A DNA stretch of 64,000 bases from Planctomycetia bacterium (GCA_012269595.1 JAAXJX010000005.1:143472-207471); one strand, 5' to 3'; shown: positions 34,662-61,986, counted from the stretch's first letter. Notes: generated by a model not told the origin, from the sequence alone. Program-made: numbers and translations.

Positions 34662-34700
34662 CGGATCAACATCAACGGATCAACACCAACGGATCAACAC
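34662..34700 (+). repeat. Three tandem CGGATCAACA units (14-nt period) in the 5' leader, abutting the SD
   Basis: CGGATCAACAT-CAA-CGGATCAACAC-CAA-CGGATCAACAC-C-AAGGAG-N5-ATG (34713). Confidence 0.9.
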
Positions 34701-34712
34701 CAAGGAGTTCTG

Positions 34713-36680: not shown

Positions 36681-36696
36681 GTCCCCCTGGGAAACC

Positions 36697-42600: not shown

Positions 42601-44511
42601 GAAGTGACGCCCTATTCCGTAGTGGGAATCGGTGACATGAGTGGCGACGTGTTTGGAAATGGAATGATCCTTGCCAAAAAAGGCAAGCTTCTCGCCGCTT
42701 TCAATCATTTGCACATTTTCATCGACCCCGATCCGGATCTTGAAACGTCTTACGCTGAGCGCTGCAGGCTTTTTAACCTTCAGCGATCTAATTGGTCTGA
42801 CTACAACACAGACCTGATCTCTCAGGGAGGCGGAGTCTTTGACAGAACGCTGAAAACCATCGATTTGCCAGAGATCTCACGAGAGTTGTTGGAGCTGCCA
42901 GCGGATGAAACCTTCACACCGGATCAGATCATTCAGGCGATTCTCAAATTGCCTGTGGATATGGTCTTCAATGGTGGAATCGGCACATACATCCGAGCGG
43001 ACGAAGAACGAGACCAGGACGTGGGAGACCCGGCGAACAGCGCCTGCAGGATTCCCGCTTCTGCCGTGAGATGCCGCATGCTTGTCGAAGGGGGTAACCT
43101 TGGAGTCACTCCCAAGGGCCGGATTCAAATCTCCAGTCAAGGCACCATGCTCAATACGGACTTCATTGATAACTCAGGTGGGGTGGATTGCTCAGACCAT
43201 GAGGTCAATCTGAAGACTTTGCTTTCACAGGAGGTCCGTACAGGAAGATTGAATTTCGACGAGCGGAATTCCCTCCTTGAGGAAGTTCAGGACGAGGTAT
43301 GTGAGTTGGTCCTCGAAAATAACCGTGATCAGGGACTCCTGTTGGGGCTCGACGAAATTCGAAGTCATAGCGATCCGTTTTCGTTCGAACGTACCATCTC
43401 CGTTCTGGAAGACCGGGAAATCCTTAACCGATCCGAGCAGTTCTTGCCAACCCCAGAGGAATTAGCCAAGCGTCATGCCGAGGGGCAGTCTCTGACTCGT
43501 CCCGAGCTTGCGGTTATCGCTGCTCACGCAAAGATGGATGTTTACCGCAGATTGCTGAAGCAGCCGGCGGGGAGGATCGATGAAGAGAGACTGCTCTTCG
43601 ATTACTTCCCGGAAGCGGTCAGGGAGAGATTCCCCGAAGCGGTTCGACAGCACCAACTTAAACGGGAAATTGCCATGACAGTGGCAACCAACCGGATCAT
43701 CAACAGGGCCGGCTCCTCTTTCTTCACCGATATGGAGCGTGAAACGGGTCGATCCGTGGGGCATGTGGCTCAGGCTTATCTGGTCGCAGATGACCTTGTG
43801 GGTGCAGAGAAAATGCGCAGGTCGATTTACGCACTGACCGAGATGGATTCGGAAACAGCGGATCAGGCTCTGGTAAGGATTGAGGAATGCCTTCGCCGTG
43901 CTGCGGCATGGTTGCTCAGTACTCATGACGATGATCGACTTCAGCGAATACAGGCTCTGATTCTCGAGGGAGTCAGCCCCTTGGAAGAATACGAGCAGTC
44001 GATCCCATCTTGCCTGGCTCTTCCTGAACTTGAAAGATTCAACGCTTACGTCAACGAGGCCGTACAAGCAGGTTTCCCAGAAGATCTGGCGATCAGGCTT
44101 GCCAAGTTCGAATATCTGACGGCTGGTGTGAGAATCCTGGACGTCAGTAACACCTACAGTTTGAGAGTGGACCATGTTGCCCGCCTTTATTACCTGTTGG
44201 GTAATGAGAGTGGATTGCACCCCCTCGTTCGAAAGTGCGATGAATCGGTCCTTTCCGGTCGCTGGGACTCACTCTCGATGCGAATTCTCCGGAATACGAT
44301 TCTGGATGGATTGTGGGCCTTGGTTGCCAGAATTTGTGAGTCGAACCCCGACTCTCAAACCCCGGGTTGGATCGAAGAAAGCATCCGTGAGTTGCGGGCC
44401 AATCCGAGCTTTGGAGCCCTCGAGTCTGATATCCGGAGAATCGGATCTGACGAGTTGAGTATCGCCTCGGTGCAGGTGTTGAGTGTGAGATTCCGCAGAC
44501 TGGTCGAGTAG
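39667..44511 (+). CDS. gdhB: NAD-specific glutamate dehydrogenase, large (about 180 kDa) class
   Basis: 1614 aa. GGLRWSDRVTDFRTEVYGLQQTQMVKNVLIVPVGAKGGFV and GIGDMSGDVFGNGM are signatures of the Bac_GDH family. Start is TTG 39667 or ATG 39730. Confidence 0.88.
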   Translation: MSDFSRTAGSFRDQSWISGDSMQNGDSNNRFQGRLAGLVDPADSHVVDDKLAPLLRDFLEQYDAVLDELDDENVLRRLAGDLLATFNLFLDRQKDQILVRITSEKKSGRKSASTFIDVVCKDQPFVVDTIQLILETHSLAVVSKHSASAPVIRNQDGRVRAIDGTDSGAVDEIICHFEVAQSSDDELLATLQAEVQMRLEQAFVIVRDYKRMKAVIQDSIRNIRKVSSKKSQQNLVETRELLEWLLLDNFVFFGVERWGENAHSVDSLQLGIESAESSDREILQQGQATLQSEDCPKGRLVAFKGFEESLVHRKGKLDHFLLLEEGPEGEFQFVHIWGLFTFKALQVPGVRIPFVREKLEEVVSQHPFPKGGLRYKSYETAFNSIPVEFLFEAGNGEIEGVIQAIHYVERSREIHGHMVMGADRRRGLYFLITPREGYSEEQRSGIEKILVESMGANYSDSRFHIGKHGTVLLSFFLTATEELADVEETVIQEQVKLLTGTWSERFHRYLESVSEEDSDALFMRYRDAFPQEYQVLHSPHEAFVDATCLESVRSDSGPEMEFNLFRTEDDVANNSARIRLYQRKNQLLSTTLPILDNFGISIVDQNAYRVRPSSGDVFTIDTFQVHGIYDDQHPLIRNKTEFLSALRSIFLGGASSDGLDRLVIETGLCHQDVELIRNQLHYMHQLGLSTTVAFASDTLCQHQEITKSLLQYYSLRFNPALDLDLKSREQQAQEIYEDLQRTLIEVRSSAQDQFLRKIIEVFRATLRTTRYLETDPALQAYKYQSGALPHGPQPRPWREIYVHHPEVEGIHLRGGPLARGGLRWSDRVTDFRTEVYGLQQTQMVKNVLIVPVGAKGGFVLRKPAGNRQDRREQADRVYRLFIKGLLKITDNVIDGKVEHPENIICWDGEDPYLVVAADKGTAHLSDTANSISEEHGFWLDDAFASGGKHGYDHKELAITARGAWEEAKIHFRRLGIREEVTPYSVVGIGDMSGDVFGNGMILAKKGKLLAAFNHLHIFIDPDPDLETSYAERCRLFNLQRSNWSDYNTDLISQGGGVFDRTLKTIDLPEISRELLELPADETFTPDQIIQAILKLPVDMVFNGGIGTYIRADEERDQDVGDPANSACRIPASAVRCRMLVEGGNLGVTPKGRIQISSQGTMLNTDFIDNSGGVDCSDHEVNLKTLLSQEVRTGRLNFDERNSLLEEVQDEVCELVLENNRDQGLLLGLDEIRSHSDPFSFERTISVLEDREILNRSEQFLPTPEELAKRHAEGQSLTRPELAVIAAHAKMDVYRRLLKQPAGRIDEERLLFDYFPEAVRERFPEAVRQHQLKREIAMTVATNRIINRAGSSFFTDMERETGRSVGHVAQAYLVADDLVGAEKMRRSIYALTEMDSETADQALVRIEECLRRAAAWLLSTHDDDRLQRIQALILEGVSPLEEYEQSIPSCLALPELERFNAYVNEAVQAGFPEDLAIRLAKFEYLTAGVRILDVSNTYSLRVDHVARLYYLLGNESGLHPLVRKCDESVLSGRWDSLSMRILRNTILDGLWALVARICESNPDSQTPGWIEESIRELRANPSFGALESDIRRIGSDELSIASVQVLSVRFRRLVE

Positions 44512-44522
44512 GAGGCTCGGTT

Positions 44523-45392
44523 TTGACCCAGCATTCCGGAGCAGTTTCGAGAGTTTTGTGGCTGACACTGGGGGCCAACCTCACCGTCGCAGTTTGCAAG
44601 CTCATCTTCGGATTCATGAGTGGGTTGGCTTCTGTGATCGCAGACGGCTATCACTCGCTTCTGGATGCCTCGAGTAACCTGGTTGGCCTTGTTGGAATCC
44701 GAATCTCAGCCGCTCCTCCTGATGACGATCATCCCTATGGACATCAGAAATTCGAGATCTTCTCCTCGATGGGAATCGCCCTGTTGCTGTTTGTAGCCGC
44801 ATACAACATCGTCGGTGAGGCGATGGAACGCTGGCAATCCCGCGAGGTGCATGAAGCGCTTGCATGGGGATACCCTTTGCTTGGCATGACACTGGTCGTG
44901 ACCTATCTGTTGCAACGGTGGCAGCGAAAGAAGGCCCGTGAGCTTTCAAGCGCTATATTGCATGCCGACAGTGAACACACCCGGTCCGATTTTCTTGCCA
45001 CTTTGGGAGCACTCATGGCAGTCATTGCACTGGATCTGGGCTATCCGGAAGTGGATGCCATCGTGGCACTTTGTATTGGTCTTGCGATAGCCCGTTCCGG
45101 AGTCCTGATCGCCTTGCAATCAGCGGGCATTCTTGCAGACAAGGCCCCTCTGCCAGCCTCCGAGATCATCCGCAGGGCGGAGGGATTCCCGGAGGTTCGC
45201 CTGGTCAGGGATGTTCGGAGTCGGGGATTTGGCAGTGGGATCTTTGTCGACCTGAGCATTCAACTGGATTCGAATCTCAGCCTAGAATCCGCCCATGAGA
45301 TCGCTCACAAGGTCGAGGATCGGTTGAGGGCTGATATCCCCGGGATCCACGATGTCGTGATCCACGTGGAGCCTTATGGCTCAAGTAAATGA
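44523..45392 (+). CDS. Cation diffusion facilitator (CDF) family metal efflux transporter
   Basis: GGAGG 7 nt before TTG 44523. ADGYHSLLDASSNLVGLVGI...DDDHPYGHQKFEIFSS...HADSEHTRSD. Confidence 0.85.
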   Translation: MTQHSGAVSRVLWLTLGANLTVAVCKLIFGFMSGLASVIADGYHSLLDASSNLVGLVGIRISAAPPDDDHPYGHQKFEIFSSMGIALLLFVAAYNIVGEAMERWQSREVHEALAWGYPLLGMTLVVTYLLQRWQRKKARELSSAILHADSEHTRSDFLATLGALMAVIALDLGYPEVDAIVALCIGLAIARSGVLIALQSAGILADKAPLPASEIIRRAEGFPEVRLVRDVRSRGFGSGIFVDLSIQLDSNLSLESAHEIAHKVEDRLRADIPGIHDVVIHVEPYGSSK

Positions 45393-45413: not shown

Positions 45414-46373
45414 TCAGATCAGCTGAATCAACCACCAACAGTATGTTCCAAACAACAATACTCCGACGGCTTTAACGGGCAGCCTGCCCTTGATCAGTGT
45501 ACCAAGCAAGATCAGTGATCCTGTCATGGCTGCCATCACGATCAAATCCACTGAGAGAGCACTGATGTTCAGGGGGAGGGGAGCGACAACAGATGCCGCT
45601 CCGATGATGGCAATCGTGTTGAAGATGTTTGAGCCGACTATGTTGCCCAGAGCGATCCCGGTTGATCCTTTTCGGAGAGCCACGATAGAGGCAAAGAGTT
45701 CAGGTGCACCGGTTCCCGCTGCAACGACGGTAAGACCCACGACAGTTTCACTGATACCAATCAATTGAGCGAGATTGCTGGCGCCTGATACAAGAAGGTC
45801 TGCTCCGATCCATAGGCCGAGCATTCCAGAAACAAGTTTCAGATAGGTTTTCAAAGCACTTTCGTCTGAAAGAAGTTCGTCAATATCCGGGCCTGCTCCT
45901 TGCGCCCTTCCGCGCAAAAAGTTCAAGACCAGCAATACGGCGAAGATCAGTAAAAGAAGGCTTCCTTGAGAAACGTCAAGCTTGGCCACTCCGTCGGAGT
46001 CCTGCATACCATAGATCAGTCCAAGAAATCCAAGGGTGAGCAATGTGAGAACCCTGATTTCTGTCTTGCCTCCGACGAGCCCTTTTTGATCCTTCCAGAT
46101 AAAGATCAGGCCCAAAACGACTCCAATATTGAAGATGTTGCTACCGATCACATTTCCCAGAGTCAATCCTGAACTGCCCTCTACCTGGGCGATGACGGCT
46201 ACCACGAGTTCAGGAAGGGAGGTGCCTGCAGCAACGACAGTCGTTCCCATGAAGATGGGGGAGAGATTCCAACGAGTTCCGAGATTGACCGCTGCGCCGA
46301 TCAGCCAGTCTCCAGCGAACATGAGGAGCAGGAGTCCAGCCAGTAACGAGGAAATCGCATAAAACCAGTCCAT
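45414..46373 (-). CDS. Ca2+/Na+ antiporter, CaCA (YrbG-like) family
   Basis: Two alpha-repeats: GTSLPELVVAVIA...GNVIGSNIFNIGVVLG and GTGAPELFASIVA...GNIVGSNIFNTIAIIG. Confidence 0.88.
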   Translation of the reverse strand: MDWFYAISSLLAGLLLLMFAGDWLIGAAVNLGTRWNLSPIFMGTTVVAAGTSLPELVVAVIAQVEGSSGLTLGNVIGSNIFNIGVVLGLIFIWKDQKGLVGGKTEIRVLTLLTLGFLGLIYGMQDSDGVAKLDVSQGSLLLLIFAVLLVLNFLRGRAQGAGPDIDELLSDESALKTYLKLVSGMLGLWIGADLLVSGASNLAQLIGISETVVGLTVVAAGTGAPELFASIVALRKGSTGIALGNIVGSNIFNTIAIIGAASVVAPLPLNISALSVDLIVMAAMTGSLILLGTLIKGRLPVKAVGVLLFGTYCWWLIQLI

Positions 46374-46382
46374 TGAAACCCC

Positions 46383-47525
46383 TTAGAACGGTGCAAAGAG
46401 AATGCTGAAGAAAGCCGTTACAGGTTCCTGTTCTCGAAGGTCTTCCGTGGAATCACGCAAGAGAGTCAGAGTCTCCCTCGCATCATTGAAGAGGCTGGGG
46501 TCCTTGATCAAACTGTGCAAGGTTCCTGGACCATTGTTGATGTCCTGGCTGATTTGCGAAATTGCACCGATTGCTGACGCCACTTCATCACCGAGCTTTT
46601 TGCTGTGTATCAGGCGTGCAAGCATACCGGCACCCTCTGGCCCCAGTTCTTCTGTGACCTTGCTGATTGACCGCATCGATTCTCTCACTGTGGTGACAAA
46701 CTCCTCGTCATGAATGACGGCTCCGAGGAGTCCCCTTGCATTGGCAATGGCATCGAGTGAAACGGTCAAGTCACCAATCGTTTTCTTGAGATTTTCCCGG
46801 GTTTCACGGTCCTTGAGGAGGAGGCCCAGCGTACCCTCGCCTGCTTCGATCGCGCCCATTTCCGAGTCGACCCTGCTCAGGACACGATTGAATTGAACCT
46901 GTTGATCAGATCCCTCCAGAAGCAGAGATCCCACGAGCCCTTCGCCGGCTTTGAGTCGTGCGGTCAGGATCTCCAGATTTTCTACGGAGTTGAGAAACTG
47001 TGTTTTGGCTTTGTCGCTGGTCAACAAGCCACCAAAGATACCTTGGCCGGAATCCAGTTTCTGAAGCAGGCTGGACAGGGATGAAAGCCCGTCTTCGATG
47101 CTGCCTCGGGTGTTGTTAAGAAGGTCTCCCACTTCACCGAGAACGTCTCCTCCAGCCAAACCGCGCAAGTCATCAGTGGCGACCAGGTCTCCCACACCAG
47201 GGGTGTATCGCAGGTAGGTTCCCCCCAAAGCACTCGCAGGAAGGATTTTGAACTCATAACCTTCCCGAGGCTCGAGATTCTGACCGAGTTGAATGGTGGC
47301 TACGGCGAGATCCCGTTGGGGATCGAGAACGATCTTGTCGACGACCCCGGAGCGAAGCCCGCGGATCCTGACCGGATCCCCGGCTTTCATCCCTGACACG
47401 TCTTCGAAGCCGACATTGAGTGTCAGTGCAGATCCTGAAGGGTACTCCTGCAACATGAAGGTCAGTGCACCTACCAGGGTCAGGGCCAGTATGAAAATCC
47501 CACCGACAAGAAAGTCTCTGCTCAT
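46383..47525 (-). CDS. mlaD: MlaD/MCE-family substrate-binding protein with an extended C-terminal repeat region
   Basis: N-terminal TM helix plus the MCE domain (FEDVSGMKAGDPVRIRGLRSGVVDKI). The 380 aa include six G-x-G-h-h-G-x-L-h repeats. Confidence 0.8.
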   Translation of the reverse strand: MSRDFLVGGIFILALTLVGALTFMLQEYPSGSALTLNVGFEDVSGMKAGDPVRIRGLRSGVVDKIVLDPQRDLAVATIQLGQNLEPREGYEFKILPASALGGTYLRYTPGVGDLVATDDLRGLAGGDVLGEVGDLLNNTRGSIEDGLSSLSSLLQKLDSGQGIFGGLLTSDKAKTQFLNSVENLEILTARLKAGEGLVGSLLLEGSDQQVQFNRVLSRVDSEMGAIEAGEGTLGLLLKDRETRENLKKTIGDLTVSLDAIANARGLLGAVIHDEEFVTTVRESMRSISKVTEELGPEGAGMLARLIHSKKLGDEVASAIGAISQISQDINNGPGTLHSLIKDPSLFNDARETLTLLRDSTEDLREQEPVTAFFSILFAPF

Positions 47526-47543
47526 GAGACCTCATTTCTATCT

Positions 47544-48311
47544 TCAATCATTCGAACTCCCGTCGAGGAGTCCTCTGCTGAGAGGCCCGGAGATTTGCCC
47601 CTCCAGAAACTGGCGAACCGCAGGGTCTGCAGAGTCGCGGAAATCATCCACATTTTCGAGGGCATGGATCTGACCTTCATGAAGCAGGGCAATCCTGTCT
47701 GCCACCTCGAAAGCGGAGTTCATATCATGGGTCACCAGCACCTGGGTGATCCCCGTGGTTTTCAATCGATTGACAAGCTTGTTGATGATGCTGGAGGAGA
47801 TGGGGTCGAGTCCGGAGGTGGGCTCATCGTGCAGCACAATCTTGGGATGGCTCACGAGGGCCCTTGCGAGTCCGGCTCTTTTGCGCATGCCTCCCGAGAT
47901 TTCTCCTGGAAGTTTGTCTCCATGTTGGTCAAGTTCCACTTCCCTGAGTGCGTCTTTCACTCGCTGATCAACTTCACTTTTCGCGAGTTTGTGGGTTTCC
48001 AGAAGGGGGAGTGCCACGTTTTCTGCGATGGAGAGCCAATTCAGAAGCGCACCATCCTGAAACAGATAACCGACCTGACTGCGAACTGCCGCCAACTGGT
48101 CCGTCGATGTTTCGGTGAGACTCTTCCCGAGGACTTCTACGCGTCCGCTATCCGGTTGCATCAAGCCAACGATGTGACGCAGGGTAACGCTCTTGCCCGT
48201 TCCTGATCGGCCGAGGAGGACCAGAGTCTCACCTTCTTCAATCGTGACGCTGAGGTTTGAAAGAATCGTTCGCCCGGAGAGGACCTTGGTGACATTTTCA
48301 AGTTGAATCAT
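47544..48311 (-). CDS. mlaF: ABC transporter ATP-binding protein, MlaF type
   Basis: GRSGTGKSV (Walker A), ISGGMRKRAGLARAL (signature), IVLHDEPTSGLD (Walker B). ATG 48311 forms an ATGA overlap with the mlaE stop. An alternative ATG lies at 48326. Confidence 0.88.
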   Translation of the reverse strand: MIQLENVTKVLSGRTILSNLSVTIEEGETLVLLGRSGTGKSVTLRHIVGLMQPDSGRVEVLGKSLTETSTDQLAAVRSQVGYLFQDGALLNWLSIAENVALPLLETHKLAKSEVDQRVKDALREVELDQHGDKLPGEISGGMRKRAGLARALVSHPKIVLHDEPTSGLDPISSSIINKLVNRLKTTGITQVLVTHDMNSAFEVADRIALLHEGQIHALENVDDFRDSADPAVRQFLEGQISGPLSRGLLDGSSND

Positions 48312-49087
48312 GACAGATACCACCATGACAGGTAGTAACCAAGAATGATCACGAGAAGGAAAGTGATGACGACGGCTCTTCGTGCAGCCTCGCCGACTCC
48401 GGTAGCTCCACCCCGTGTCAGCAATCCCTGAGTTGAGCCGACTGTTGCAATGGTGATTCCAAAGACCACAGATTTGATCAACCCAATGTGGACATCCCCC
48501 AATTGAAGGTTCTCAAGGGCATCATTGGAAAAGGCGATCCAGGTCACTCCAAAATTGTTTGCGGCAACGATGCTGGCACCCAGGATTCCGATAAAAGCTG
48601 CAAAGATGGTCATGACCGGTGTCACCAGAGTGAGCGCAATCAAGCGGGGAAGAACCAGAAACTTGACGGGTGAAATGGACATGATCTCCAGGGCATCGAT
48701 CTCCTCGGAGACTTTCATCGTACCGATTTCAGCAGCGATACCACTGCCAAGGCTTGCCGTCAAAATGAGCGCAGTCATGAAAGGGCCCATTTCCCGAATC
48801 ATGGAAATGGCGACGATACGCCCAATGAGATTTTCCTGCCCCAGAGAAGCGAGGGAGTCGCCTCCGTTGAGTGCGAGGATCATTCCAGTGAAGAGTGCGA
48901 CCACCGCGGTCACGGTGAAGGAACCCAGGGTGTAGGTGAAGATGAGATTGAGGCAATCTCTCATGCGCCTGCGGGTGAACAGATGAGGGAGGTTCAGTAT
49001 CGTCCTGCAAAGCAGAACGAGACCGTAACCGGTAGTCTCGGCACTGCGTCCGAGAAAATGCCCAAGGGCTTCAATCCAGCCCGTCAT
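48308..49087 (-). CDS. mlaE: ABC transporter permease, MlaE type
   Basis: 259 aa, multi-TM. IREMGPFMTALILTASLGSGIAAEIGTMKVSEEIDALEIMSISP is the MlaE signature. Confidence 0.88.
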   Translation of the reverse strand: MTGWIEALGHFLGRSAETTGYGLVLLCRTILNLPHLFTRRRMRDCLNLIFTYTLGSFTVTAVVALFTGMILALNGGDSLASLGQENLIGRIVAISMIREMGPFMTALILTASLGSGIAAEIGTMKVSEEIDALEIMSISPVKFLVLPRLIALTLVTPVMTIFAAFIGILGASIVAANNFGVTWIAFSNDALENLQLGDVHIGLIKSVVFGITIATVGSTQGLLTRGGATGVGEAARRAVVITFLLVIILGYYLSWWYLS

Positions 49088-49180
49088 TCTGCTCCATTCC
49101 CCGCGAGCGATCCTTGATTGGGGGGTGCTCCCCTCCGACGAACCGCTTTTGTTCCCCTGACAGGAGTAGAACCCCTGTTT

Positions 49181-50509
49181 TCAGAACTGAATGTACATGA
49201 GACGCCACCGGGTGTCATCTGATCGCGGGTCCCGTTCCTTCGACAGGAGCCCACCCAAGAGCGAGAACTCGATCTGATCCGAGGATTTTCTCGTATTCAG
49301 GAATCCCCACAGGAGCTCAAAATCCCAGCCTTCGCTGGAGGACTTCCAGCGGGCCAGTTGAGTCGAGCGTCCATGGGACCACTCAAAGCCCCGTGGGGCA
49401 TCAAAAGGAAGCAACGCCGGAAAGGAGCCCCGGGTTTCACCACGTTCATCTGTTTTCCAGCGGCCAAGAGGCCATAAGAGCCGGTCAGACCGAGTTCCAT
49501 CGGCTTTGGAGGTGTCGTCAATGGATCGCCAGAAGGGGAAGAGCCTGCGAACCTCACGGGTTTTTTCCCCGGCCGTTTGTGATTCCCACTGCCAGAGGGG
49601 CCACAGGGTAAAGCCGGTGGACAAACCCTCCTGTTTATGAAAACCCCAGAAGGGGTAGAGTTCGATCCGGTTCCACTGACCGTTTCGTGTGCCAATGGTC
49701 CAGGGAAGAAATGTCCAGGAGGAGACCCCTGCTGCCGTATTGTGTTCTTCCCACCAAAACGGAAATGCAATCGATCGGAGTATTCTGTCTCTGCTTTCGA
49801 TTTGTCCAATGAATGGCCAGATCCACCACGAATGAACGGGGTTATCGGTGTCGAGTCGACTGGCCTTTTCGTTCCAGAAGGGCCACATGATAGTGCGTGA
49901 TTGATCCCTGATTTTGCCATCGACGGTGAAGCCCGTTGATTCGCCATAAAATGGAAAGACTCTCCATCCTTTTCTCAGCGGACCATCATCGAGGCCGGCA
50001 ATGGGAAAAAGATAATGCTCGGCGATCTGACTGCGATCCTGGAGTCTTGCCCAGAGTGGGAAGAGGAGGTAATCGATCCTGTCTTTGCCGAGCAATCCGC
50101 GGATAGTTCCGCCAAGAGGGCCCAAAGCAAGGTAGTCACCTTCTTTGGGATCGGTGCCCCAAAGGACGAGGGGAAGAATGAATCCATCGACATCCCAGCG
50201 CCCATCGGCATGCTTGTGAGCCGATCGGTGGTAGATGGGAAGTAACCACGTTTGATTCTCATTCTCTTCAACCCGATTCATGTAGATCGGCCAGAGTACA
50301 CGGGTTTCACTGAGCGACTCACTTTTTGCGGTTGAGAAAAAGGGCCACCAGTGGCGCGATTCGAGGGTTTCACCATTCGAAAGTGTCTCTGTGCGTTCCA
50401 GATAAAATGGAGGAAATCCCCGCTCTGCATCCGCAGTTGTGGTGCACCCACACAAGAAGAGTGTGAGGAGACACGGCAAAGTTAGAATACCCGAGTTGAA
50501 TCGCGTCAA
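49181..50509 (-). CDS. Lipoprotein with about 11 repeated aromatic-Pro motifs (h-W/F/Y/L-P-h-h) and a terminal Phe; unknown family
   Basis: TTG start. LTLFLCGC lipobox. Repeats LWPIY, LLPIY, LFPLW, LFPIA, VFPFY, MWPFW, IWPFI, AFPFW, LYPFW, LWPLW, LFPFW, LWPLG. C-terminus RLMYIQF-stop. Confidence 0.55.
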   Translation of the reverse strand: MTRFNSGILTLPCLLTLFLCGCTTTADAERGFPPFYLERTETLSNGETLESRHWWPFFSTAKSESLSETRVLWPIYMNRVEENENQTWLLPIYHRSAHKHADGRWDVDGFILPLVLWGTDPKEGDYLALGPLGGTIRGLLGKDRIDYLLFPLWARLQDRSQIAEHYLFPIAGLDDGPLRKGWRVFPFYGESTGFTVDGKIRDQSRTIMWPFWNEKASRLDTDNPVHSWWIWPFIGQIESRDRILRSIAFPFWWEEHNTAAGVSSWTFLPWTIGTRNGQWNRIELYPFWGFHKQEGLSTGFTLWPLWQWESQTAGEKTREVRRLFPFWRSIDDTSKADGTRSDRLLWPLGRWKTDERGETRGSFPALLPFDAPRGFEWSHGRSTQLARWKSSSEGWDFELLWGFLNTRKSSDQIEFSLLGGLLSKERDPRSDDTRWRLMYIQF

Positions 50510-50566
50510 AAAATCCCCAGTTCCCCAAATCCCCAGTACACCAATATCAGGATTACCCTGATATCT

Positions 50567-53500
50567 TCAGCGAACCAGCCGAATCGGCAAGAGTAAATCC
50601 GGGCAACAGCCTTCCCAAAGACGGTCCATCACTTTGTGGAGGACCATTCCGGGAGTCAAGCCAAGATACTTTGTCGCTCCACTTCCGGTGTCGTCGTCGG
50701 TAATCGCGACACCCAGACGCATCTTCAGGCCTGGCCAGGGGCTGGAAACCGTTTCTCCCCTTTGAGTGAGGATGGAATCCCACGGAATGGTCATTTCATA
50801 AGTGACACCCATGCGGTCGGCCCTTCTGAGGACGACATGTTCCCCTTCCGGCTCTTCCGCATCGTCCTCATCTTCCGGGAAGGGCATTTCTTCTCCGGAT
50901 TCTCCTTCGGGATTTTCAGGATTCTCGGCTTCGGGATCCTCCTGCTGGCGTGGGGGGACGAAAGCCAATGTCAAAACCTGATCATCGTTGCGTGGAGTCT
51001 GTCCTCCATCACCAAGGGTGTCGAGAATCAACAGAAGGCAATCTCCGGTCCAGGTATGGGAATCACGATCGTGGACGGTGATGTGATCATCCTCGACTTC
51101 AATCGCAATATGCAGACCACTTTCAGTCCAGCCGAGAAACATCTTTGCGGACAGATCCATGTGGTCATTCCAGGGGATCTTGATCTCTCCGATACCCTGC
51201 AAGCTTCGTACAAATCGGGGGGTCTCCATGGACAAGCCCGCTGTCGCTTCCCATGGCTCAGAGAGTGAACCATCAATCACGGGTTGGATGGGCATGTAGG
51301 GGACCCTGATCTCCTCCAGTCCAGACAATGCTCGCAAGCGTTCGAGAGATTCCAGTTCCCAGCTGGCGTCTTTTTTTATCTGCAATGGCTGATTGGTTGT
51401 TTTGATCAGAGATTCCCGGATTTCCACCTGGTGGGCCAGCGTGTCCTTCTGGAGCAAGCCCTGAGTCAGGGTCATTTCGGAGACACCCAGTGAATGGAGG
51501 AGATCGAACCAATCCTCTGTATCTTTTTTCAGCGGTTGTCTCGCATGGAAAGCGGCCGAGCCCCTGGCGCAGACGACAATCAGCTGGTCACCAAGAATCG
51601 TGGCGCCGTGCAGTCTGCCTAGGGGGCGGGTGTAATGGGTGACCACTTCCAGGCCATTTTTCTGGGAGAGAGGAGTCCCGGTATATCGATCAAGAATGGA
51701 GAGGTCTCCCCTCAATCGATCGACCACGAGAAGCCAGGGGCCATGTTCCACCAGTTCAACGGCGTCGTAGGCGGGGACGAGATCCCGAGTCCAGAGAAGT
51801 TCTGCTTCGGGGACGGTTTGAATCGTTGAAGTTTCCGGAGTTTTGAGGCAAAGGAGGCTTCGTTCCGTGAAACCATCGCAGAGGACGAGGAGTTCCTGTC
51901 CCAGTGATTTGACGGCGACGATCCTTCGCAACTCCTGAGGCAGTTTCCTCTGCCAACTTGGATCTCCGGATTCAAAATTGATTCCCATCAGAGTGGGATC
52001 CTGTTCAGTCCAGTACATTCGGGCTATGACCTGTTGTTGGTCCAGCGAGAGGTAGATGTCTGAGACAGGGGAGGGAGTTCTGAACTCCCAAAGAGTGAGA
52101 CCGTCGGCGTCTTTACGGGTGATCAGTCCCCCTTCGGTACCATACAGGCAACCGTCGGCAGCGAAGACAGGAGCGTTGGCCAAACCGGGGACATCTCCCT
52201 TCAGTTTCCAACTGTGAAGGACTGCACCATCCCCAAGATTGCGGATTTCCACTTTGTCGGGAATCGAATATCCCAATAGCACCTGTCCATTTTGAAGGGC
52301 AGGGGTATCGATCAGGATTCCAGAATCGGCGATAGACCACCGAGTTTGACCATCTTCCGGATTGAGATGGTAGAGGCGCCGTGAATCAGAGACAGCAATG
52401 ATCGCCTCATGATTACTGACGCAATGAACCCAGATTTGCTGATCTGCAGTGAAATCCCCTGAATCTGTCGAAGGAAGTGGGGGGACCGATTTTTTCCAAA
52501 CCAGTCGTCCCGAATCGAGATCGATTTTGAAAATGTGGTTTTTGTTCCACAACAAAAGACCTTCAGCATGCAGTCCGAGAAGTTGACATGCTTGACGTTG
52601 GCGATTGAGGAAGATGCCCCCTCGAACCGTGGGAGCAGATTCTTCAAGATCGAACTTCCACAATGATTTTCCCTGACGGCTGTCAATGAGGCGTGCTCCA
52701 TTGGCAGTCAAAATCAGATACCGCAAATCCTCCTCGTAACCCGGAAAAGTATTCAGCGAGTGAAGCGTCGTCGCCCGAAGTTGTTCAAGGTCGAGCCTTC
52801 CGGTCCATGAAATTTCCAGAGGCAAACCGGGGACTTCGGGGATTTTCAGTTCCGGATCTGGAATCTGCTTTTTCAGTTCATCGAGTCTTTGTGACAGGGT
52901 AGAGGTCAGGGTTTCACCATCCAGTGTGCGGGTCAGCAGCCGATTGCCATGATCTCTGCGTAATTCTTCAATAACCGCGAGGGCTTTACGTCGTTGTCCC
53001 TGTTCTCTGAGGACTTCCGCTTTGCGGAGTCGTGCGACCACACTCTCGTCGCTTCGGGATTCTCGTAAAATCAGAAGATCCAGTTGTTGCAAAGATGCTT
53101 CGAGGTCCTTGGCTCTGTAGAAAGCCTCAGCAGCCCTGAGGCGGGCCAGCCTTCCGGTGGGAGTACCGGGATGAGAGGTGGCCAGAGTGCGCAACCTTTC
53201 CGGTGTCTGACTGTCGAGACTGGCCAGGTGATCCCGGGCACGAGCTTCCCGTTTAAGGATTCTCTCCTGATTTCCCGGCTTCATATCCAATTGAAGCAAC
53301 AGTCCGGTGAATGCATTTTCAGCGCTGATCGATGGGCCTGTTTTCAGCGTCACTTGCACTTCACGAAGTCTTTGCACCGGCTCCGTCAGCAACAATTGGC
53401 AGATCTTGTCTGCGGTTTCGATCGCCTCATTTTGAAGAGCATTGACGGCTCTCTCCCAGCCGATACGAATTCGTTGGCGGCTGGTGTTTTCGGCACTGAT

Positions 53501-55477
53501 CAGTGCTATCTCTGATCGGCTAAACAGATCTTCAGGCAATGTTCGTTGGGGCTGATCGAGAATCCAGCGGAGTTGATTCTTGAGTCGACCAAAGACAGGA
53601 TCGGGTCTCCCCAGATCGAACTTTGCAAGAGAACTTTGTAGAAGATCGGTTTCTCCACGAATCAGCGAGGCCAGCAAAGCTTCTCCGTCACCCCGCTCAA
53701 GATCTCTTTGAACACCCTGTGATTGCCACCAATAAAGACCATTGGCCGTGATCGTGCTGAAGCCGGTGCGGGTAAACCGAATCGCCCTGGGTGGAGTCAC
53801 CCAGGCCATATGGGAAATCCAGCCTCCCTTCGAGTCGATGGCACTGAGGACTTTGGATGTGGTCAGGAGAATCTGTTCACCTTCACGAAAATCGATAGAA
53901 AGAGGTTTTCCCGGGGACGGGTTTGGCCACACCGTTTGCCATTCGAGTGAAGCTGACTGGTTTTTCTCTACAGGGATTCGCCACGACTTCACTTTTCCAT
54001 CTGTCGTGATCATCACACACTGATCACCTGATCTGGAAACTTCCCAAAGGGTTCCTTCTGCCACAGGGAGTCCGGTGTGAATGTGACCGGTGGTCGCAGA
54101 AAGTTGTTGGATTCTGGAAGTTCCCGGTACCTGGAGAAACACCCGGTCTTCCCTGACCTGCAGCGCAGGACGATTCAGATCGACAAACTCCAGATGGTCG
54201 CGCAAACCGGCGGGTCCTCGGGGTTGCAGATCTCTCGACCAAAGGATGGCACCGTCCTGTTCACGCAGGGCCAGAACATTTCCTCTTCCACTGTTCCAGA
54301 AGATTCGGCCACGATCGTAGACTGGGGGGGCTGTCCAGCTATGGAGAGCGAGCCACGTTGCCCCCGTGCTTTCTCCCAGTGATCTGACCCATGCCACCTG
54401 ACCATCCCTTGTGATCCTGGCCATGTAGGCTTCGAGCCGGTTGCCGATGTATTGCTGGATGACGATGGCAAAGCCGCCGGGAACAGCGATAGGCTCAGAT
54501 AGTTGGGACCAGGATGATCGTTCATCCTTCCCGAGTAACCGTTCCCTGAAAATGGTCCAAAGTACTTCACCGCTGACGGGGTCCAACCCGTGAATTCCGC
54601 CAGTACTGACCATGGCAATTTGTTGAACTGAATATGAAGGGCGTTGCTGGCGAATCTGGATCCGGGAATCAGGGCCTGGTGACGAAGGGGTTGGAGTTGT
54701 CTTCCAGAGAAGGTCACCATTCCCGGAGTCATACGCCCTGAGATTGTCTGAAGACTGAACCCAGAGAGTCTTCCCCGATTGAAGCATTGCCCTTTGCTTG
54801 CGCGGTTCTTCCCAGGGGGCGGAATCACTGGATTCTTCCAGAGTGAATCTCTGCAAGGACAGGGGTTTGATTTGATCGAGGTTGATTGGTGGCAGACGCA
54901 GGGGACGGGTTGGAAAACTTTCAGGGGTCTCTTCCGCCATGGGAGAGAAGCTTCGCAGTAACTCGTATAGCCCGAAGTCTCCTCTCTCCAATGCTGCATG
55001 GGTCAGTGGCCTGAGCCATTCTTCACCGACGATTTCTGGACTCAGGTCAAGAAGCCGACGACTTCTCTGACGGTCGAGCGAGGCATCAAACCCAACGGGA
55101 GGAGAGTTCTCAAATCGGCTTTGCAGGGCCAGTCGCATTTCTTTCCGGGCGCCTCTGGAAAGTTCCGGTGGCATCGTTTCGAGAATCATTTTCAGGTATG
55201 GGCCGGCACCTACATGAAAGTCTTCACTCAGGGTGAAGGTTCCTCCCGGGTCTCCGTCAAAGATCCGGTCCGCCAGCCTGACCATCGCAGGATTCAACTC
55301 TGAAGGGTCACCCGTGATCAGTGCTTCTTCCACAGATCGGGAGAGGCGATCCAGATCTGCCGAGCGGGGAGGGATCCAAGGTTGGTTTTGGCCGAGACAG
55401 ATACAGGGAAGGCTGATCAGGCACAGGGCCAGCCAGATTGCTCGAGCCAGAAGTTGTTTTGGGCGAGGGGGCAGCAA
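50567..55477 (-). CDS. Giant secreted protein: PQQ-like beta-propeller repeats, TPR-like region, more propeller repeats, and a C-terminal CBM9/DOMON-like domain
   Basis: 1636 aa. TTG start with AGGAGG 4 nt upstream. Signal peptide AIWLALCLISLPCICLGQ. PQQ-like motifs (AYDSGNGDLLWKT, LDPVSGEVLWTI, REQDGAILWSR, DLDSGRLVWKK, NPEDGQTRWSI). The C-terminal PVIDGSLSEPWEA...LHIAIEVEDDHI is CBM9-like. Confidence 0.65.
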   Translation of the reverse strand: MLPPRPKQLLARAIWLALCLISLPCICLGQNQPWIPPRSADLDRLSRSVEEALITGDPSELNPAMVRLADRIFDGDPGGTFTLSEDFHVGAGPYLKMILETMPPELSRGARKEMRLALQSRFENSPPVGFDASLDRQRSRRLLDLSPEIVGEEWLRPLTHAALERGDFGLYELLRSFSPMAEETPESFPTRPLRLPPINLDQIKPLSLQRFTLEESSDSAPWEEPRKQRAMLQSGKTLWVQSSDNLRAYDSGNGDLLWKTTPTPSSPGPDSRIQIRQQRPSYSVQQIAMVSTGGIHGLDPVSGEVLWTIFRERLLGKDERSSWSQLSEPIAVPGGFAIVIQQYIGNRLEAYMARITRDGQVAWVRSLGESTGATWLALHSWTAPPVYDRGRIFWNSGRGNVLALREQDGAILWSRDLQPRGPAGLRDHLEFVDLNRPALQVREDRVFLQVPGTSRIQQLSATTGHIHTGLPVAEGTLWEVSRSGDQCVMITTDGKVKSWRIPVEKNQSASLEWQTVWPNPSPGKPLSIDFREGEQILLTTSKVLSAIDSKGGWISHMAWVTPPRAIRFTRTGFSTITANGLYWWQSQGVQRDLERGDGEALLASLIRGETDLLQSSLAKFDLGRPDPVFGRLKNQLRWILDQPQRTLPEDLFSRSEIALISAENTSRQRIRIGWERAVNALQNEAIETADKICQLLLTEPVQRLREVQVTLKTGPSISAENAFTGLLLQLDMKPGNQERILKREARARDHLASLDSQTPERLRTLATSHPGTPTGRLARLRAAEAFYRAKDLEASLQQLDLLILRESRSDESVVARLRKAEVLREQGQRRKALAVIEELRRDHGNRLLTRTLDGETLTSTLSQRLDELKKQIPDPELKIPEVPGLPLEISWTGRLDLEQLRATTLHSLNTFPGYEEDLRYLILTANGARLIDSRQGKSLWKFDLEESAPTVRGGIFLNRQRQACQLLGLHAEGLLLWNKNHIFKIDLDSGRLVWKKSVPPLPSTDSGDFTADQQIWVHCVSNHEAIIAVSDSRRLYHLNPEDGQTRWSIADSGILIDTPALQNGQVLLGYSIPDKVEIRNLGDGAVLHSWKLKGDVPGLANAPVFAADGCLYGTEGGLITRKDADGLTLWEFRTPSPVSDIYLSLDQQQVIARMYWTEQDPTLMGINFESGDPSWQRKLPQELRRIVAVKSLGQELLVLCDGFTERSLLCLKTPETSTIQTVPEAELLWTRDLVPAYDAVELVEHGPWLLVVDRLRGDLSILDRYTGTPLSQKNGLEVVTHYTRPLGRLHGATILGDQLIVVCARGSAAFHARQPLKKDTEDWFDLLHSLGVSEMTLTQGLLQKDTLAHQVEIRESLIKTTNQPLQIKKDASWELESLERLRALSGLEEIRVPYMPIQPVIDGSLSEPWEATAGLSMETPRFVRSLQGIGEIKIPWNDHMDLSAKMFLGWTESGLHIAIEVEDDHITVHDRDSHTWTGDCLLLILDTLGDGGQTPRNDDQVLTLAFVPPRQQEDPEAENPENPEGESGEEMPFPEDEDDAEEPEGEHVVLRRADRMGVTYEMTIPWDSILTQRGETVSSPWPGLKMRLGVAITDDDTGSGATKYLGLTPGMVLHKVMDRLWEGCCPDLLLPIRLVR

Positions 55478-55532
55478 GAAGCCTCCTGAATGCAGTGGGT
55501 CTCCTTGCTTTTAAGCGATAGGTGCCGGGGGC

Positions 55533-56444
55533 TCAACCGTTGGTTGTGGAGGCGGTTCCTGCCCAGGCACAGATATGTGCTACCGCGATGTCGCCAAACT
55601 CACGAACCTGGGTCTTCCAGGATTCCCTGTGGGGGTCCTCGGGGCGATCGGGGACTGCCAACAGTCCCTCGAGCCTGCCGAACAGGAAGAGGGGGAAGAG
55701 CAGGATTCGGTTTGAATGATCAAAGAGGCCTTCCCGCTCCACTTCCCGGCAGGTTTCACCGGGATCCGTGAATCCCGCGCAAGCAACAGATTCCAGCTCT
55801 GAGTCGATCACGGAATTTCGGGAGTAAGTGGGGTATAGCCTTTGGTCCTTGCGCAGGTAGAGCAGCAACTCTTCACATTGAAGTTCCTCAAACAGGGAAT
55901 TTCTCCAGCGCTGGAGGGGGGTTTTTGCACCGGTTCGAAGCCAGGTTCTGGCTTGCGATTCAGGAGAGCCGGCAGACTTTTTTTTCTTTTCCTCTTCAAG
56001 GAAGTGAAGAGTTCGCTGGAGGTCACCCTGTAGGCGCAGATTGGTACTGCGCAACTGGCGCCGCTCAGCGGCCTGAGTGACGACCAACTTGAGATCCCTG
56101 TCCAGATCGATCACCGGTTTTTCGATGTAGGAGTAGGCTCCCAATCGCATTGCATCGAGGGCACTTTCCAGAGTTGCCGATCCGGAGGCAATGATGACTT
56201 CGACCTCAGGGGCATGCTCCTTGATCGCTCTCAAGAGACCGATTCCATCCATTCGGGGCATGCGGAAATCTGCGATAACCACATCCGGTTCTTTTTCCCG
56301 AACCTTTTGGAGACCTTCCACTCCGTCTCTGGCTGTCGAGACGTGGAATCCCTCCGTTTGCAGGTAGATCTGAAAACTTTCCCTGACAAAAGGATCGTCT
56401 TCTACTACGAGGACCTCGATTTGTGGATACCAACCGGGATTCAC
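55533..56444 (-). CDS. Response regulator: receiver domain plus a GAF-like C-terminal domain, with no HTH
   Basis: VLVVEDDPFVRE...PDVVIADFRMPRMDGIGLL...VIIASGS (phospho-acceptor Asp context). The C-terminal FPLFLFGRLEGLLAVPD is GAF-like. The GTG start overlaps the kinase TGA (GTGA). Confidence 0.8.
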   Translation of the reverse strand: MNPGWYPQIEVLVVEDDPFVRESFQIYLQTEGFHVSTARDGVEGLQKVREKEPDVVIADFRMPRMDGIGLLRAIKEHAPEVEVIIASGSATLESALDAMRLGAYSYIEKPVIDLDRDLKLVVTQAAERRQLRSTNLRLQGDLQRTLHFLEEEKKKKSAGSPESQARTWLRTGAKTPLQRWRNSLFEELQCEELLLYLRKDQRLYPTYSRNSVIDSELESVACAGFTDPGETCREVEREGLFDHSNRILLFPLFLFGRLEGLLAVPDRPEDPHRESWKTQVREFGDIAVAHICAWAGTASTTNG

Positions 56445-58135
56445 TGCAGTTCTCCCTGCCAGTGGTCGGTCACATCCAGAGGATTGATTTCTTCGCTGCC
56501 CAACTGGGCCATGGCATCGGGGAGAACAATTCTGAAGCGTGCGCCTCGTCCTGGCTCCGTTTCAAGATCGATCATTCCACCGGCACCATCGACGATTCGT
56601 TGAACGACATAAAGACCAAGACCGCTGCCTTTATCCGTTTCTTTTGTCGAGTAGAGAGGGTCAAAAGCATGGCGTGCCACTTCGGTCGTCATACCCGGAC
56701 CGTCATCTTCGAAGACCAGTTCGATGCCTCCTTGTGAAAGGTGTTTCCCCGTGACGTGAATGGAGCCGCCATGACCCGCTTCATGCATCGCATCCGCTGC
56801 ATTCAGGGACAAGTTCATGACCACTTGTCGCAAGGCAGTAGAGTCGCCCGTCAGATGAAGGTCCGCGGGGACGTCCAGCGTTGTCGCGATTTCCGCATTG
56901 CGCAGTCGGGCTTCGCAGATGGCCAGCGTTCCCTCGATCACTTCACGCACATTGAAGGCTTTTTCAGATCCAGGTTTGAATGGCCTGGTTCTGGCAAATG
57001 CCAACAGGTTACGACACAGTGCTCGACAGAAGTCTGCGGCTTCCTGTGCCTTGTTGATCAACTTGCGATTTTGTTCAACATTCTGGGGATTTTTTTCAAT
57101 GCTTCGATTCGCCAACTGGAGGAAACCGATCACCGAACCCAGAGGATTGTTCAGGTCATGGGCAAAACCACTGGCGAGTCGCCCGATGGCGACCATTTTC
57201 TCCTGTCGGGTCAGTTGTTCCCGGCTTTCCAGAAGAGCCTCGTGGGCTGCACGGGTTTCACGGAAAAGCCGTGAGTTCTCGAGATTGACCGCCAGGTGCA
57301 CTCCCAGGCTGGCAACCCAGTTCAGTTCCTCTTCAGAGAAGGGGCTGGAGCCGGTTCCCCGCTCCAGATAGAGAACCGACGTTTCCGAATCCTTGCCCAC
57401 GAGAGGCAGAGCGAGAGCGGAAAGGGCCTGTTTTCTGCGAACACATACACTGGCTTCAAACGCATTGCCGACTTCAGATGAGATCAGACCTTCCCGTCTT
57501 CTGCGTGAAGCTTCGACGAGAGTCATGCTGGGATCGAGTCCTTCGAGATCGACAGGTTTGTGATCCCGTTCACCCAAAGCTCTTTTCGTGCCTTCTTCAT
57601 TCCACTGAATCCAACCCCACGATTCAAAGTGGACGCCGGAGCGCATGACCTCGACAACTCCCCGAATCAGATCTTCAGGGGGAGTTGAGGTTTGATTGAG
57701 GAGACCCACTTCGAAGAGGGCTTCCTGAAGGCTTTTGGTGACACCACTGTGTTGGGAATCCTGTTGGAGACGTTTTTGAAGAGAAGCGGGGTCCACCTTG
57801 ATGGAGAATGTACTCATGTGTTCCTGAACGGCATGAACCGTCAACGAACATTCACCGATGGTGATCACATCTCCCGCTTCAAGAACACAGCGGGTCACGA
57901 CTTCTCCGTTGACCAGTGTGCCGTTGCGACTGCCATCGTCTCGAAGCATCCACAGTGAATCATCGGTAGGGCTGATTTCGGCATGTTGCCGGGAGGCACG
58001 AGTGTCATCGATGACCAGATCACAGCCCGGGTCACGTCCGAGACGAACAGTCTCAGATCCCAGTACGAGTCTTTGCCCCCGACCGGGGCCCTCGGTGATG
58101 ATGAGATGCATGGGGCCTCCCGGGACCCGCTTCAT
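56441..58135 (-). CDS. FHA-GAF-HisKA-HATPase sensor histidine kinase, apparently cytoplasmic
   Basis: FHA: VRLGRDPGCDLVIDDTRASRQHAEI...DDGSRNGTLVNG. GAF: ALPLVGKDSETSVLYLER...NSRLF. H-box FAHDLNNPLGSV. G-boxes DDGPGM and GSGLGL. Start is ATG 58135 or 58111. The ATG at 58237 abuts a terminator and is unlikely. Confidence 0.85.
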   Translation of the reverse strand: MKRVPGGPMHLIITEGPGRGQRLVLGSETVRLGRDPGCDLVIDDTRASRQHAEISPTDDSLWMLRDDGSRNGTLVNGEVVTRCVLEAGDVITIGECSLTVHAVQEHMSTFSIKVDPASLQKRLQQDSQHSGVTKSLQEALFEVGLLNQTSTPPEDLIRGVVEVMRSGVHFESWGWIQWNEEGTKRALGERDHKPVDLEGLDPSMTLVEASRRRREGLISSEVGNAFEASVCVRRKQALSALALPLVGKDSETSVLYLERGTGSSPFSEEELNWVASLGVHLAVNLENSRLFRETRAAHEALLESREQLTRQEKMVAIGRLASGFAHDLNNPLGSVIGFLQLANRSIEKNPQNVEQNRKLINKAQEAADFCRALCRNLLAFARTRPFKPGSEKAFNVREVIEGTLAICEARLRNAEIATTLDVPADLHLTGDSTALRQVVMNLSLNAADAMHEAGHGGSIHVTGKHLSQGGIELVFEDDGPGMTTEVARHAFDPLYSTKETDKGSGLGLYVVQRIVDGAGGMIDLETEPGRGARFRIVLPDAMAQLGSEEINPLDVTDHWQGELQ

Positions 58136-58237
58136 GCGGGAATCCCTGCACAGAAGAATACGATGCAGCCCGAATTCCGGCGTTTGGGGGAGTCCTCCCG
58201 GCTGGGAGTCGCTTCGGCAAGATTTTCCGTGGGGCAT

Positions 58238-58279
58238 AAAAAAGCCCCGTAAACCCCGGGAGACGGGGGATACGGGGCT
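58238..58279 (-). terminator. Rho-independent terminator after etfA
   Basis: Minus strand reads GCCCCGTA...TACGGGGC with a nested CCCCG/CGGGG stem, followed by T6. Confidence 0.8.
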
Positions 58280-61490: not shown

Positions 61491-61946
61491 GTGGACACCC
61501 AGCGACTCAAGGAACTCATCGAGTTGATGGATCGCAACCAGCTGGAAGAGCTGGAGGTGGTCGACGGCGAACAGCGTGTTCGCTTGCGTAAAAAACCTGA
61601 AAAGCCCCGTGAAGTGGTGCAAGTGGCAGCAGGTGTTCCCGCTGTTGCTGCAGCTGCTCCTGCGGCCGCTGCCGATACGGGGGCGACAGCCGAAGCTGCT
61701 CCGGTGGACGCTTCCAATGCTGTTCTCTCTCCGATGGTTGGAACCTTTTATCGGGCCCCGGGACCGGGAGCGGAACCCTTCGTAGAGGTGGGCGACCAGG
61801 TCGAGGAGGGGCAAGTCCTTTGCATCGTTGAAGCGATGAAAGTGATGAACGAGGTCAAGGCGGAACGATCCGGAGTGATCAGTTCTCACCTTGTTGAAGA
61901 CGGAACCCCCGTGGAATTTGGCCAACCCCTCTTCAGCTTTTCCTGA
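61491..61946 (+). CDS. accB: Acetyl-CoA carboxylase biotin carboxyl carrier protein
   Basis: Ala/Pro-rich linker, then SPMVGTFY...[14 protein letters not shown] (biotinyl-Lys motif). GTG start. Confidence 0.9.
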
Positions 61947-61986
61947 AGTGGTGGTCCATATTGAATCGAAATGATCGGGTCAGAGT

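Follow-up and report, generated by a model that had tools for sequence, protein, structure and literature searches.

In a 64,000-nucleotide stretch of DNA from a Planctomycetia bacterium (GCA_012269595.1 JAAXJX010000005.1:143472-207471), which we refer to as the window, the gene of a 442-residue lipoprotein, here called protein X (49181-50509, minus strand), stands directly upstream of genes for the MlaE, MlaF and MlaD components of an MCE transporter. The transporter itself is of a known kind, with a core that passes the Pfam thresholds; the new element is the X family that stands beside it. As X-MlaE-MlaF-MlaD recurs across phyla amid unrelated flanking genes, the conserved unit is X-MlaEFD, and X is an almost obligatory neighbor of those systems in which a long MlaD lacks a beta-barrel. 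We propose that the four proteins form an ATP-driven, long-MlaD MCE lipid transporter in which X serves as the dock for MlaD on the outer-membrane side, a reading that we judge somewhat more probable than its contrary. The wider proposal, namely that X represents a new, phylum-spanning class of outer-membrane-side receptor for MCE needles, in which a Trp-rimmed beta-hairpin repeat of new fold binds the MlaD tail, is put forward more tentatively, at a little under an even chance.

A search of the X profile against 1.84 billion representative proteins yielded 3,340 protein clusters at E<=1e-3, with 1,383 at E<=1e-30, and nearly all of the 150 best matches are 440-550 residues long. Where family members bear a name, it is in every case 'hypothetical protein', and the named sources are Planctomycetia, Kiritimatiellia, Methylomirabilales/Methylomirabilis and Desulfuromonadales/Desulfuromonas. 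The closest named genome, the marine Planctomycetota metagenome-assembled genome (MAG) MCMED-G47, encodes an X that is 97% identical to the protein considered here. The literature searched, which left most subscription journals outside its scope, held no earlier description of the family, and such a description may thus exist.

X was found directly upstream of MlaE, MlaF and a long MlaD in all eight distant or divergent contexts that were checked by hand. Outside the marine Planctomycetota lineage discussed below, the same order, often with 4-nt overlaps, appears amid unrelated neighbors, as seen on five contigs, among them one from Kiritimatiellia and one from Methylomirabilales (L003-L006, four of four, plus L155). 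In addition, a degenerate DNA motif based on a conserved X block (FPLGG-14 residues-LFPLY) was used to scan metagenome contigs, and 80 loci picked in this manner were scored with hidden Markov models (HMMs). X was present in 78 of these loci, MlaE was the next gene on the same strand in 45 of the 48 X loci with at least 700 nt downstream, and the full X-MlaE-MlaF-MlaD set was found in 24 of the 26 loci that extend 3.2 kb or more downstream. Clear exceptions to this linkage are limited to the X-family genes of two loci (L095 and L100), where more than 4 kb of downstream sequence carries neither MlaE nor MlaD on the same strand. One locus (L045:1-3395) presents the variant order MlaF-X-MlaD, with X lying between the ATPase and the MCE gene. 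A PqiC-like (ABC_trans_aux) lipoprotein gene was found in none of the related loci inspected. An earlier note on this DNA had raised, as a point to be looked for in related genomes, the co-occurrence with mlaEFD of both X and a 1636-residue protein encoded upstream of it. For X, this co-occurrence indeed extends across phyla, but the 1636-residue protein joins in one lineage only.

The transporter core is encoded, as is the whole cluster, on the minus strand. MlaE (48308-49087) is a permease of the ATP-binding cassette (ABC) type, with PF02405 at 219.7 bits (cut-off 22.5) and TIGR00056 at 201.4 bits, and carries no fused STAS domain. The 255-residue ABC ATPase (47544-48311; ABC_tran, 118.9 bits), the start of which overlaps the mlaE stop as ATGA and was also called at 48311 in locus L032, reaches 163.8 bits in the MlaF equivalog model, where the cut-off is 441, and should thus be considered MlaF-like, not an equivalog. 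MlaD (46383-47525; 380 residues; PF02470, 42.4 bits, cut-off 25.1) is composed of a transmembrane helix, one MCE domain, about 250 helical residues with GxGTLGxLLxD repeats and a conserved tail, REQEPVTAFFSILFAPF. In its AlphaFold2 (AF2) monomer model, which was used for secondary structure alone, residues 2-26 are helical, strands occupy 34-122 and helices 128-377. The predicted local distance difference test score (pLDDT) of the MCE beta domain (34-122) is 72-85 and, as the model contains no strands past residue 122, no outer-membrane beta-barrel is seen in this MlaD. Homologues of the protein carry PF28544 (Helical_needle) on record. Among PDB sequences, the MlaD-family profile matched 13hr_I, a 312-residue 'Mce/MlaD domain-containing protein' (residues 4-261, E=4.2e-12), as well as solved MlaD, Mce1 and LetB chains, and the C-terminal half of MlaD taken alone found no match there. 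From the length of 312 residues and the eight deposited chains, we infer that 13hr_I is PA3213 of the PA3213-PA3214 complex (PMC13631591). Between residues ~160 and 340, five or six G-x-G-T/I-L-G-x-L-L-x-D repeats are kept from Planctomycetota to Methylomirabilales and presumably mark the boundaries of needle modules.

MlaA (PF04333), MlaC (PF05494) and STAS domains gave no Pfam match among the called genes of three loci that tile most of the window (all but ~2 kb at 17.6-19.6 kb and the last ~1 kb), in agreement with the earlier statement that MlaA, MlaB and MlaC are not seen there. Their absence had been presented as an oddity, which it is not. MlaEFD whose MlaD is long and helical occurs widely and is probably the ancestral form, and lack of MlaA, MlaB and MlaC is normal outside Proteobacteria (Grasekamp 2023, PMC10665443); that they are not seen here is thus as expected.

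The C-terminal tail of MlaD is hydrophobic and 17 residues long in the protein considered here. Among X-linked MlaD proteins, the tail follows the consensus D/E..P[IV][ST]x[FV]..hh.G.[LA]F-COOH (seven of seven in the first set), and the terminal residue is Phe in 25 of 27 metagenome loci. Two paralogous long MlaD proteins can be compared in this respect: P0266 has an X-type tail and X upstream (X HMM, E=2e-121), whereas P0263 has a different tail (...RRYFKFSLF) and no X upstream. As P0263 nonetheless ends in Phe, it is the whole tail motif, and not the Phe, that tracks X.

X itself bears the lipobox LFLCGC (reading ...LTLFLCGC-TTT), is very rich in Trp, Phe and Leu (with Trp alone accounting for 7.2%) and contains 16 aromatic-Pro-aromatic motifs, spaced 17-24 residues apart with one gap of 38 residues. 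It has no match in Pfam (E<=0.01) or NCBIfam, and the earlier description of a novel lipoprotein of aromatic-Pro repeats is thus borne out. The prolines and tryptophans of these motifs are invariant columns of the family alignment. The AF2 model, built on a 52-sequence alignment (pLDDT 93.1; predicted template modeling score 0.79), is all-beta, made up of ~42 strands, each 5-8 residues long, and a single short helix. When the sequence is laid on the string of strands, these prove mostly polar, with an aromatic-Pro motif in every other turn; in an assumed meander, the motifs would thus all be found on one edge of the sheet. Comparison with the PDB by Foldseek gave local matches alone, with a TM-score of at most 0.2. 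These weak matches, to YD/Rhs shells, the single-layer sheets of OspA and assorted propellers, were not read as homology, and the sole match of the X profile among PDB sequences was at chance level (thrombin light chain, E=0.73). Judging from the model, the fold of the X family is apparently new.

Two other assignments of X were considered and rejected. An outer-membrane beta-barrel with a beta-signal is not consistent with strands that are short (5-8 residues) and polar, nor with a terminal Phe that is not conserved: this residue, previously described as typical of outer-membrane proteins, is found at the end of 22 of 204 family members (11%). For X as a disguised MlaA or MlaC, there was no Pfam signal. 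In a 1767-residue 'hypothetical' protein (P0072), encoded on a 270-kb contig, 10 separate stretches match the X profile (500 bits), and the protein resembles a giant version in which the X repeat is present in multiple copies.

In the mechanism that we propose, MlaE2F2 in the inner membrane would power the movement of lipids. Six MlaD subunits would form an MCE ring, with their ~250-residue helical extensions making up a needle across the periplasm. X, carrying a signal peptide or a lipid anchor (the latter in this organism), would be placed on the periplasmic side of the outer membrane, with the Trp/Phe-Pro edge lying at the interface with the membrane, and would there receive the hydrophobic C-terminal tails of MlaD. 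By analogy with PA3213-PA3214 and PqiB-PqiC, X would probably thus provide the MlaD needle with its dock on the outer-membrane side: a hydrophobic groove of PA3214 binds the seven C-terminal residues of PA3213, and removal of the C-terminal peptide abolishes binding in both pairs (PMC13631591). X would fill the role played by the unrelated PqiC-like lipoproteins (PA3214, MpcA and PqiC) or by the barrel fused to MlaD in Veillonella. In the marine lineage, the system would have gained the 1636-residue periplasmic protein upstream and a Ca2+/Na+ antiporter downstream, with a cytoplasmic FHA-kinase/REC pair being associated primarily with the 1636-residue protein.

Several points weigh against this mechanism. 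The location of X in the cell and its contact with MlaD, as well as the lipid substrate, the direction of transport and the regulatory link, are features that we infer, in the case of the first two by analogy with known pairs, and adjacency of genes would be equally consistent with X acting as a chaperone, cargo or assembly factor. The aromatic rim of X was deduced from the string of strands and turns, assuming a simple meander. Anchoring of X in the outer membrane is not universal, as a crude regular expression finds a signal-peptide h-region in ~90% of the family and a lipobox-like Cys in only ~41%, the rest having a plain signal peptide. The AF2 monomer of MlaD is of low confidence past the MCE domain (pLDDT 52), and the comparison of MlaD tails with and without X includes one protein per side (P0266 and P0263). 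Finally, the metagenome sample was drawn with a single sequence motif, such that one subfamily is perhaps over-represented.

The X-MlaEFD genes are part of a row of eight co-directional open reading frames (ORFs), spanning 45414-58237 according to the ORF calls of the window. From the 5' side, these encode a histidine kinase (56441-58135), a response regulator (55533-56444), the 1636-residue protein (50567-55477), X, MlaE, MlaF, MlaD and a Ca2+/Na+ antiporter of the CaCA (YrbG) type (45414-46373; Na_Ca_ex, 178.3 bits; TIGR00367, 184.2 bits, cut-off 179.65). The 5' limit of the cluster is an intrinsic terminator on the same strand (58242-58279), which closes the upstream ETF-alpha/beta unit. 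Its hairpin (-28.7 kcal/mol, z = -3.75) is followed by six U (UUUUUU), and an equally good fold was obtained in none of 200 shuffles. As the ATG at 58237 sits in the U-tract of this terminator, the kinase starts either at 58135, as in the earlier note, or at 58111, as in the gene call of L032. According to the coordinates, the kinase and regulator genes overlap by 4 nt and are followed by gaps of 55, 57 and 93 nt, the ATGA overlap of mlaE and mlaF, 18 nt between mlaF and mlaD and 9 nt between mlaD and the antiporter gene. The terminator-like sites found inside the cluster, all of them in coding sequence, are weak, and those of the region (22, as compared to 16.9 +/- 4.7 in shuffles) are not in excess. 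Gene content, coordinates, domains and junction lengths, the terminator-bounded start and the lack of a strong internal terminator were thus all found as the earlier note had reported them.

Such short junctions with no internal terminator could point to all eight genes forming one regulated trans-envelope machine, in which the 1636-residue protein would be structural and controlled by the FHA kinase. Gene order in the lineage is also consistent with this possibility. Across 25 marine Planctomycetota MAG loci, found with a clade-only X alignment, the order RluD-ETFb-ETFa-kinase-regulator-1636-residue protein-X-MlaE-MlaF-MlaD-antiporter (ETF, electron-transfer flavoprotein) is kept where the contig is long enough, at X identities down to 35%. 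This includes L028 (X 35% identical), where the genes from the kinase to the antiporter are kept and ETF is absent. In L030 (X 33% identical), which reads AccB-AccC-1636-residue protein-X-MlaEFD, the 1636-residue protein is still encoded directly upstream of X after a local rearrangement; an inversion there places accB-accC directly upstream of the block. However, as the housekeeping neighbors RluD, ETF, glutamate dehydrogenase and AccBC are conserved around the cluster as well, this synteny is partly, and perhaps largely, a matter of plain inheritance. Moreover, X-MlaEFD stands without these genes in all other phyla, the kinase is missing in L030 and the regulator in L002 and L029, and the regulator offers no DNA-binding output and has an unconserved C-terminal region. 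A further block (L157:1403-11129) contains an RluD-like gene, a HisKA fragment, a hybrid kinase and a REC-only regulator, followed by a 1796-residue PQQ/CBM9 protein (P0070), the most distant relative of the 1636-residue protein found, with no adjoining X or Mla. This suggests that the two-component pair and the giant protein form a module of their own. The antiporter, absent from L030 and from all non-planctomycete loci, is a lineage-specific local neighbor outside the core. A single eight-gene machine is thus rather unlikely. What stands of the trans-envelope machine proposed in the earlier note is an MCE/Mla core that probably spans the envelope, with X as a dedicated partner, while the seven or eight genes do not make up one conserved unit.

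The main rival to X being a dock for MlaD is that X is a periplasmic lipid carrier or loader, which would replace MlaC and hand substrate to the MlaD ring. Over half of the X family lacks a lipobox and would then be soluble in the periplasm, X has an extremely high content of Trp, Phe and Leu, no MlaC was found among the called genes of the tiling loci, and the tight operon linkage would fit a carrier equally. In known systems, however, a needle-forming long MlaD makes a shuttle needless (PMC10665443, PMC12436622). In addition, the strands of X are polar, its hydrophobic residues would gather in turns along one edge instead of lining a pocket, and a conserved MlaD tail that tracks X points to docking at the distal end. 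We thus find a carrier role quite unlikely. A role of X as cargo or client of the transporter, or else as an assembly factor needed only while the needle is built, is most improbable. Its being encoded first, often with a 4-nt overlap with mlaE, is compatible with co-production for assembly, but MCE systems are known to move lipids and small hydrophobic molecules and not folded 50-kDa proteins (PMC5561183; PMC13631591), and an invariant one-edge aromatic motif together with a co-varying MlaD tail would suggest a lasting interface.

Of the genes upstream of X, the first encodes a cytoplasmic histidine kinase (556 residues when counted from the alternative start at 58111) with FHA (66.8 bits), GAF-like, HisKA (37.7 bits) and HATPase_c (82.9 bits) domains in Pfam and no transmembrane segment. 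The GAF_2 match (E=7e-4) is below the cut-off, yet it covers profile positions 2-136 of 136. In the regulator, a REC domain (Response_reg, 97.8 bits) precedes a C-terminal region of 183 residues, for which no meaningful Pfam match was obtained even at E<=10 and in which no DNA-binding domain was seen. A GAF-like fold, suspected for this region from its sequence pattern, was rejected, as it found no Pfam support and as conservation of the region does not extend to L028 or L030. When the regulator is aligned with its counterparts in these two loci, only the REC domain aligns, and residues 121-303 (window 55533-56084) evolve fast. As this region is fast-evolving, unaligned and without a family match, and as the whole gene is missing in L002 and L029, its designation as an 'output domain' is doubtful. 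An FHA input with no helix-turn-helix output had been described previously, and this description holds. Transcription cannot be under the direct control of the FHA-kinase/REC pair, which the genomic evidence links primarily to the 1636-residue protein rather than to the transporter.

The 1636-residue secreted protein presents an N-terminal propeller, a TPR_21-like helical region, a BamB-like PQQ_2 propeller and a CBM9-like C-terminus with an acidic insert. Pfam yields two PQQ_2/BamB-like propeller regions and a TPR_21 segment, and CBM9_1, in a scan of the C-terminus alone, passes its cut-off of 23.4 bits with a score of 23.7. As this CBM9 match is at the threshold, the 'polymer handling' suggested in the earlier note is without real support. 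In a search of PDB sequences, BamB is matched only over residues 987-1117 (E ~2e-8), and the scores with the BamB equivalog models (53.5 and 49.8 bits) fall far below the respective cut-offs (423 and 285). The likeness to BamB is thus found in the PQQ_2-type propeller, which aligns, and in the accompanying TPR_21 (YfgM-like) segment. BamB, however, is a lipoprotein of ~390 residues, whereas the protein here has four times that length, contains two propellers, ends in a CBM9-like region and, by its sequence, is not a lipoprotein. BamB-like propellers together with a TPR segment would suggest a periplasmic scaffold. Among the matches listed, there are at least nine homologues, eight in the close marine lineage and one distant, and an identical protein is found in ENA scaffold ROBB19-1_scaffold_4. 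Within the marine planctomycete clade, the gene is always upstream of X. We consider the protein to be an accessory specific to one marine Planctomycetota lineage, with its absence elsewhere only weakly established, as the 8,000 candidates that the homology search took into account are dominated by propeller repeats.

Beyond the cluster, the plus strand of the window encodes an NAD-specific large glutamate dehydrogenase (1593-1614 residues) and then a CDF cation-efflux protein (39667-45392). The CDF gene is convergent with that of the CaCA antiporter, 21 nt apart, and two cation transporters are thus encoded tail to tail, in a gene order that is kept across the lineage. On the other side, accB-accC (biotin carboxyl carrier protein and biotin carboxylase, of fatty-acid synthesis) are found at ~61491-63339 on the plus strand, divergent from rluD. 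Four large ORFs (901, 655, ~707 and 864 residues; 31702-38823 and 20936-23530, plus strand) have no Pfam match on record, and three of these stand in a row just downstream of uvrB. An FG-GAP repeat protein of 855 residues is encoded at 17644-20211 on the minus strand, and a tandem pair of FG-GAP proteins is found near the Mla block in L030 (16105-19481); this closeness is probably a coincidence.

Mechanistic work on inter-membrane phospholipid transport has almost all been carried out in Proteobacteria. Such transport in diderms is still debated, and most bacteria contain MlaEFD only, with a long MlaD (PMC10665443). In Planctomycetes-Verrucomicrobia-Chlamydiae (PVC) bacteria, this long MlaD lacks a beta-barrel, and the manner in which barrel-less long MlaD proteins, including all of those from PVC bacteria, contact the outer membrane was left open by Grasekamp et al. 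(PMC10665443). As PVC MlaD has no barrel for such contact, a role is left for a separate partner. The X family, unannotated, confidently foldable and more than 3,000 clusters in size, is a concrete candidate for this missing outer-membrane partner. If X is indeed the dock for MlaD, this would explain how barrel-less MlaEFD systems reach the outer membrane in PVC bacteria, Methylomirabilota, Desulfuromonadales and others, and X would offer a third, structurally unrelated solution beside rings of PqiC-like proteins and barrels fused to MlaD. A Pfam or NCBIfam model of the family would be worth making, as it would give a name to thousands of 'hypothetical proteins' encoded beside mlaE.

When compared to known systems, the permease, ATPase and MCE domain of the present module are homologous to those of the Escherichia coli MlaFEDB-MlaC-MlaA pathway, which differs in having a short, needle-less MlaD, a soluble MlaC shuttle, an MlaA-OmpC complex and the STAS protein MlaB. 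Veillonella parvula also possesses MlaEFD only, with a helical MlaD extension proposed to bridge the periplasm (PMC10665443). Its MlaD, however, ends in an outer-membrane beta-barrel, whereas the MlaD considered here ends in a hydrophobic tail and is genetically coupled to X. In E. coli PqiABC, a hexameric MCE needle is capped by a ring of outer-membrane lipoproteins that binds the C-terminal peptide of the needle, as we propose for X, although PqiA does not belong to the ABC transporters, PqiB contains three MCE domains and PqiC is unrelated to X. Brucella MpcEFDA (PMC12436622) and Pseudomonas PA3211-PA3214 (PMC13631591) each comprise four genes, for MlaE, MlaF, an MCE protein that forms a needle and an outer-membrane lipoprotein as partner. 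In these systems, the partner is PqiC-like, alpha/beta, octameric, ~190 residues long and encoded last, whereas X is an unrelated, all-beta, Trp-rich repeat protein of 440-500 residues and is encoded first; in addition, Brucella MpcE contains a fused STAS domain, which MlaE here does not. Nonetheless, the present module shares with both a four-gene operon for an MlaE-type permease, an MlaF-type ATPase, a needle protein with a single MCE domain and one secreted or lipoprotein partner, as well as the lack of MlaA and MlaC, and its MlaD profile matches PA3213 over both the MCE domain and the needle.

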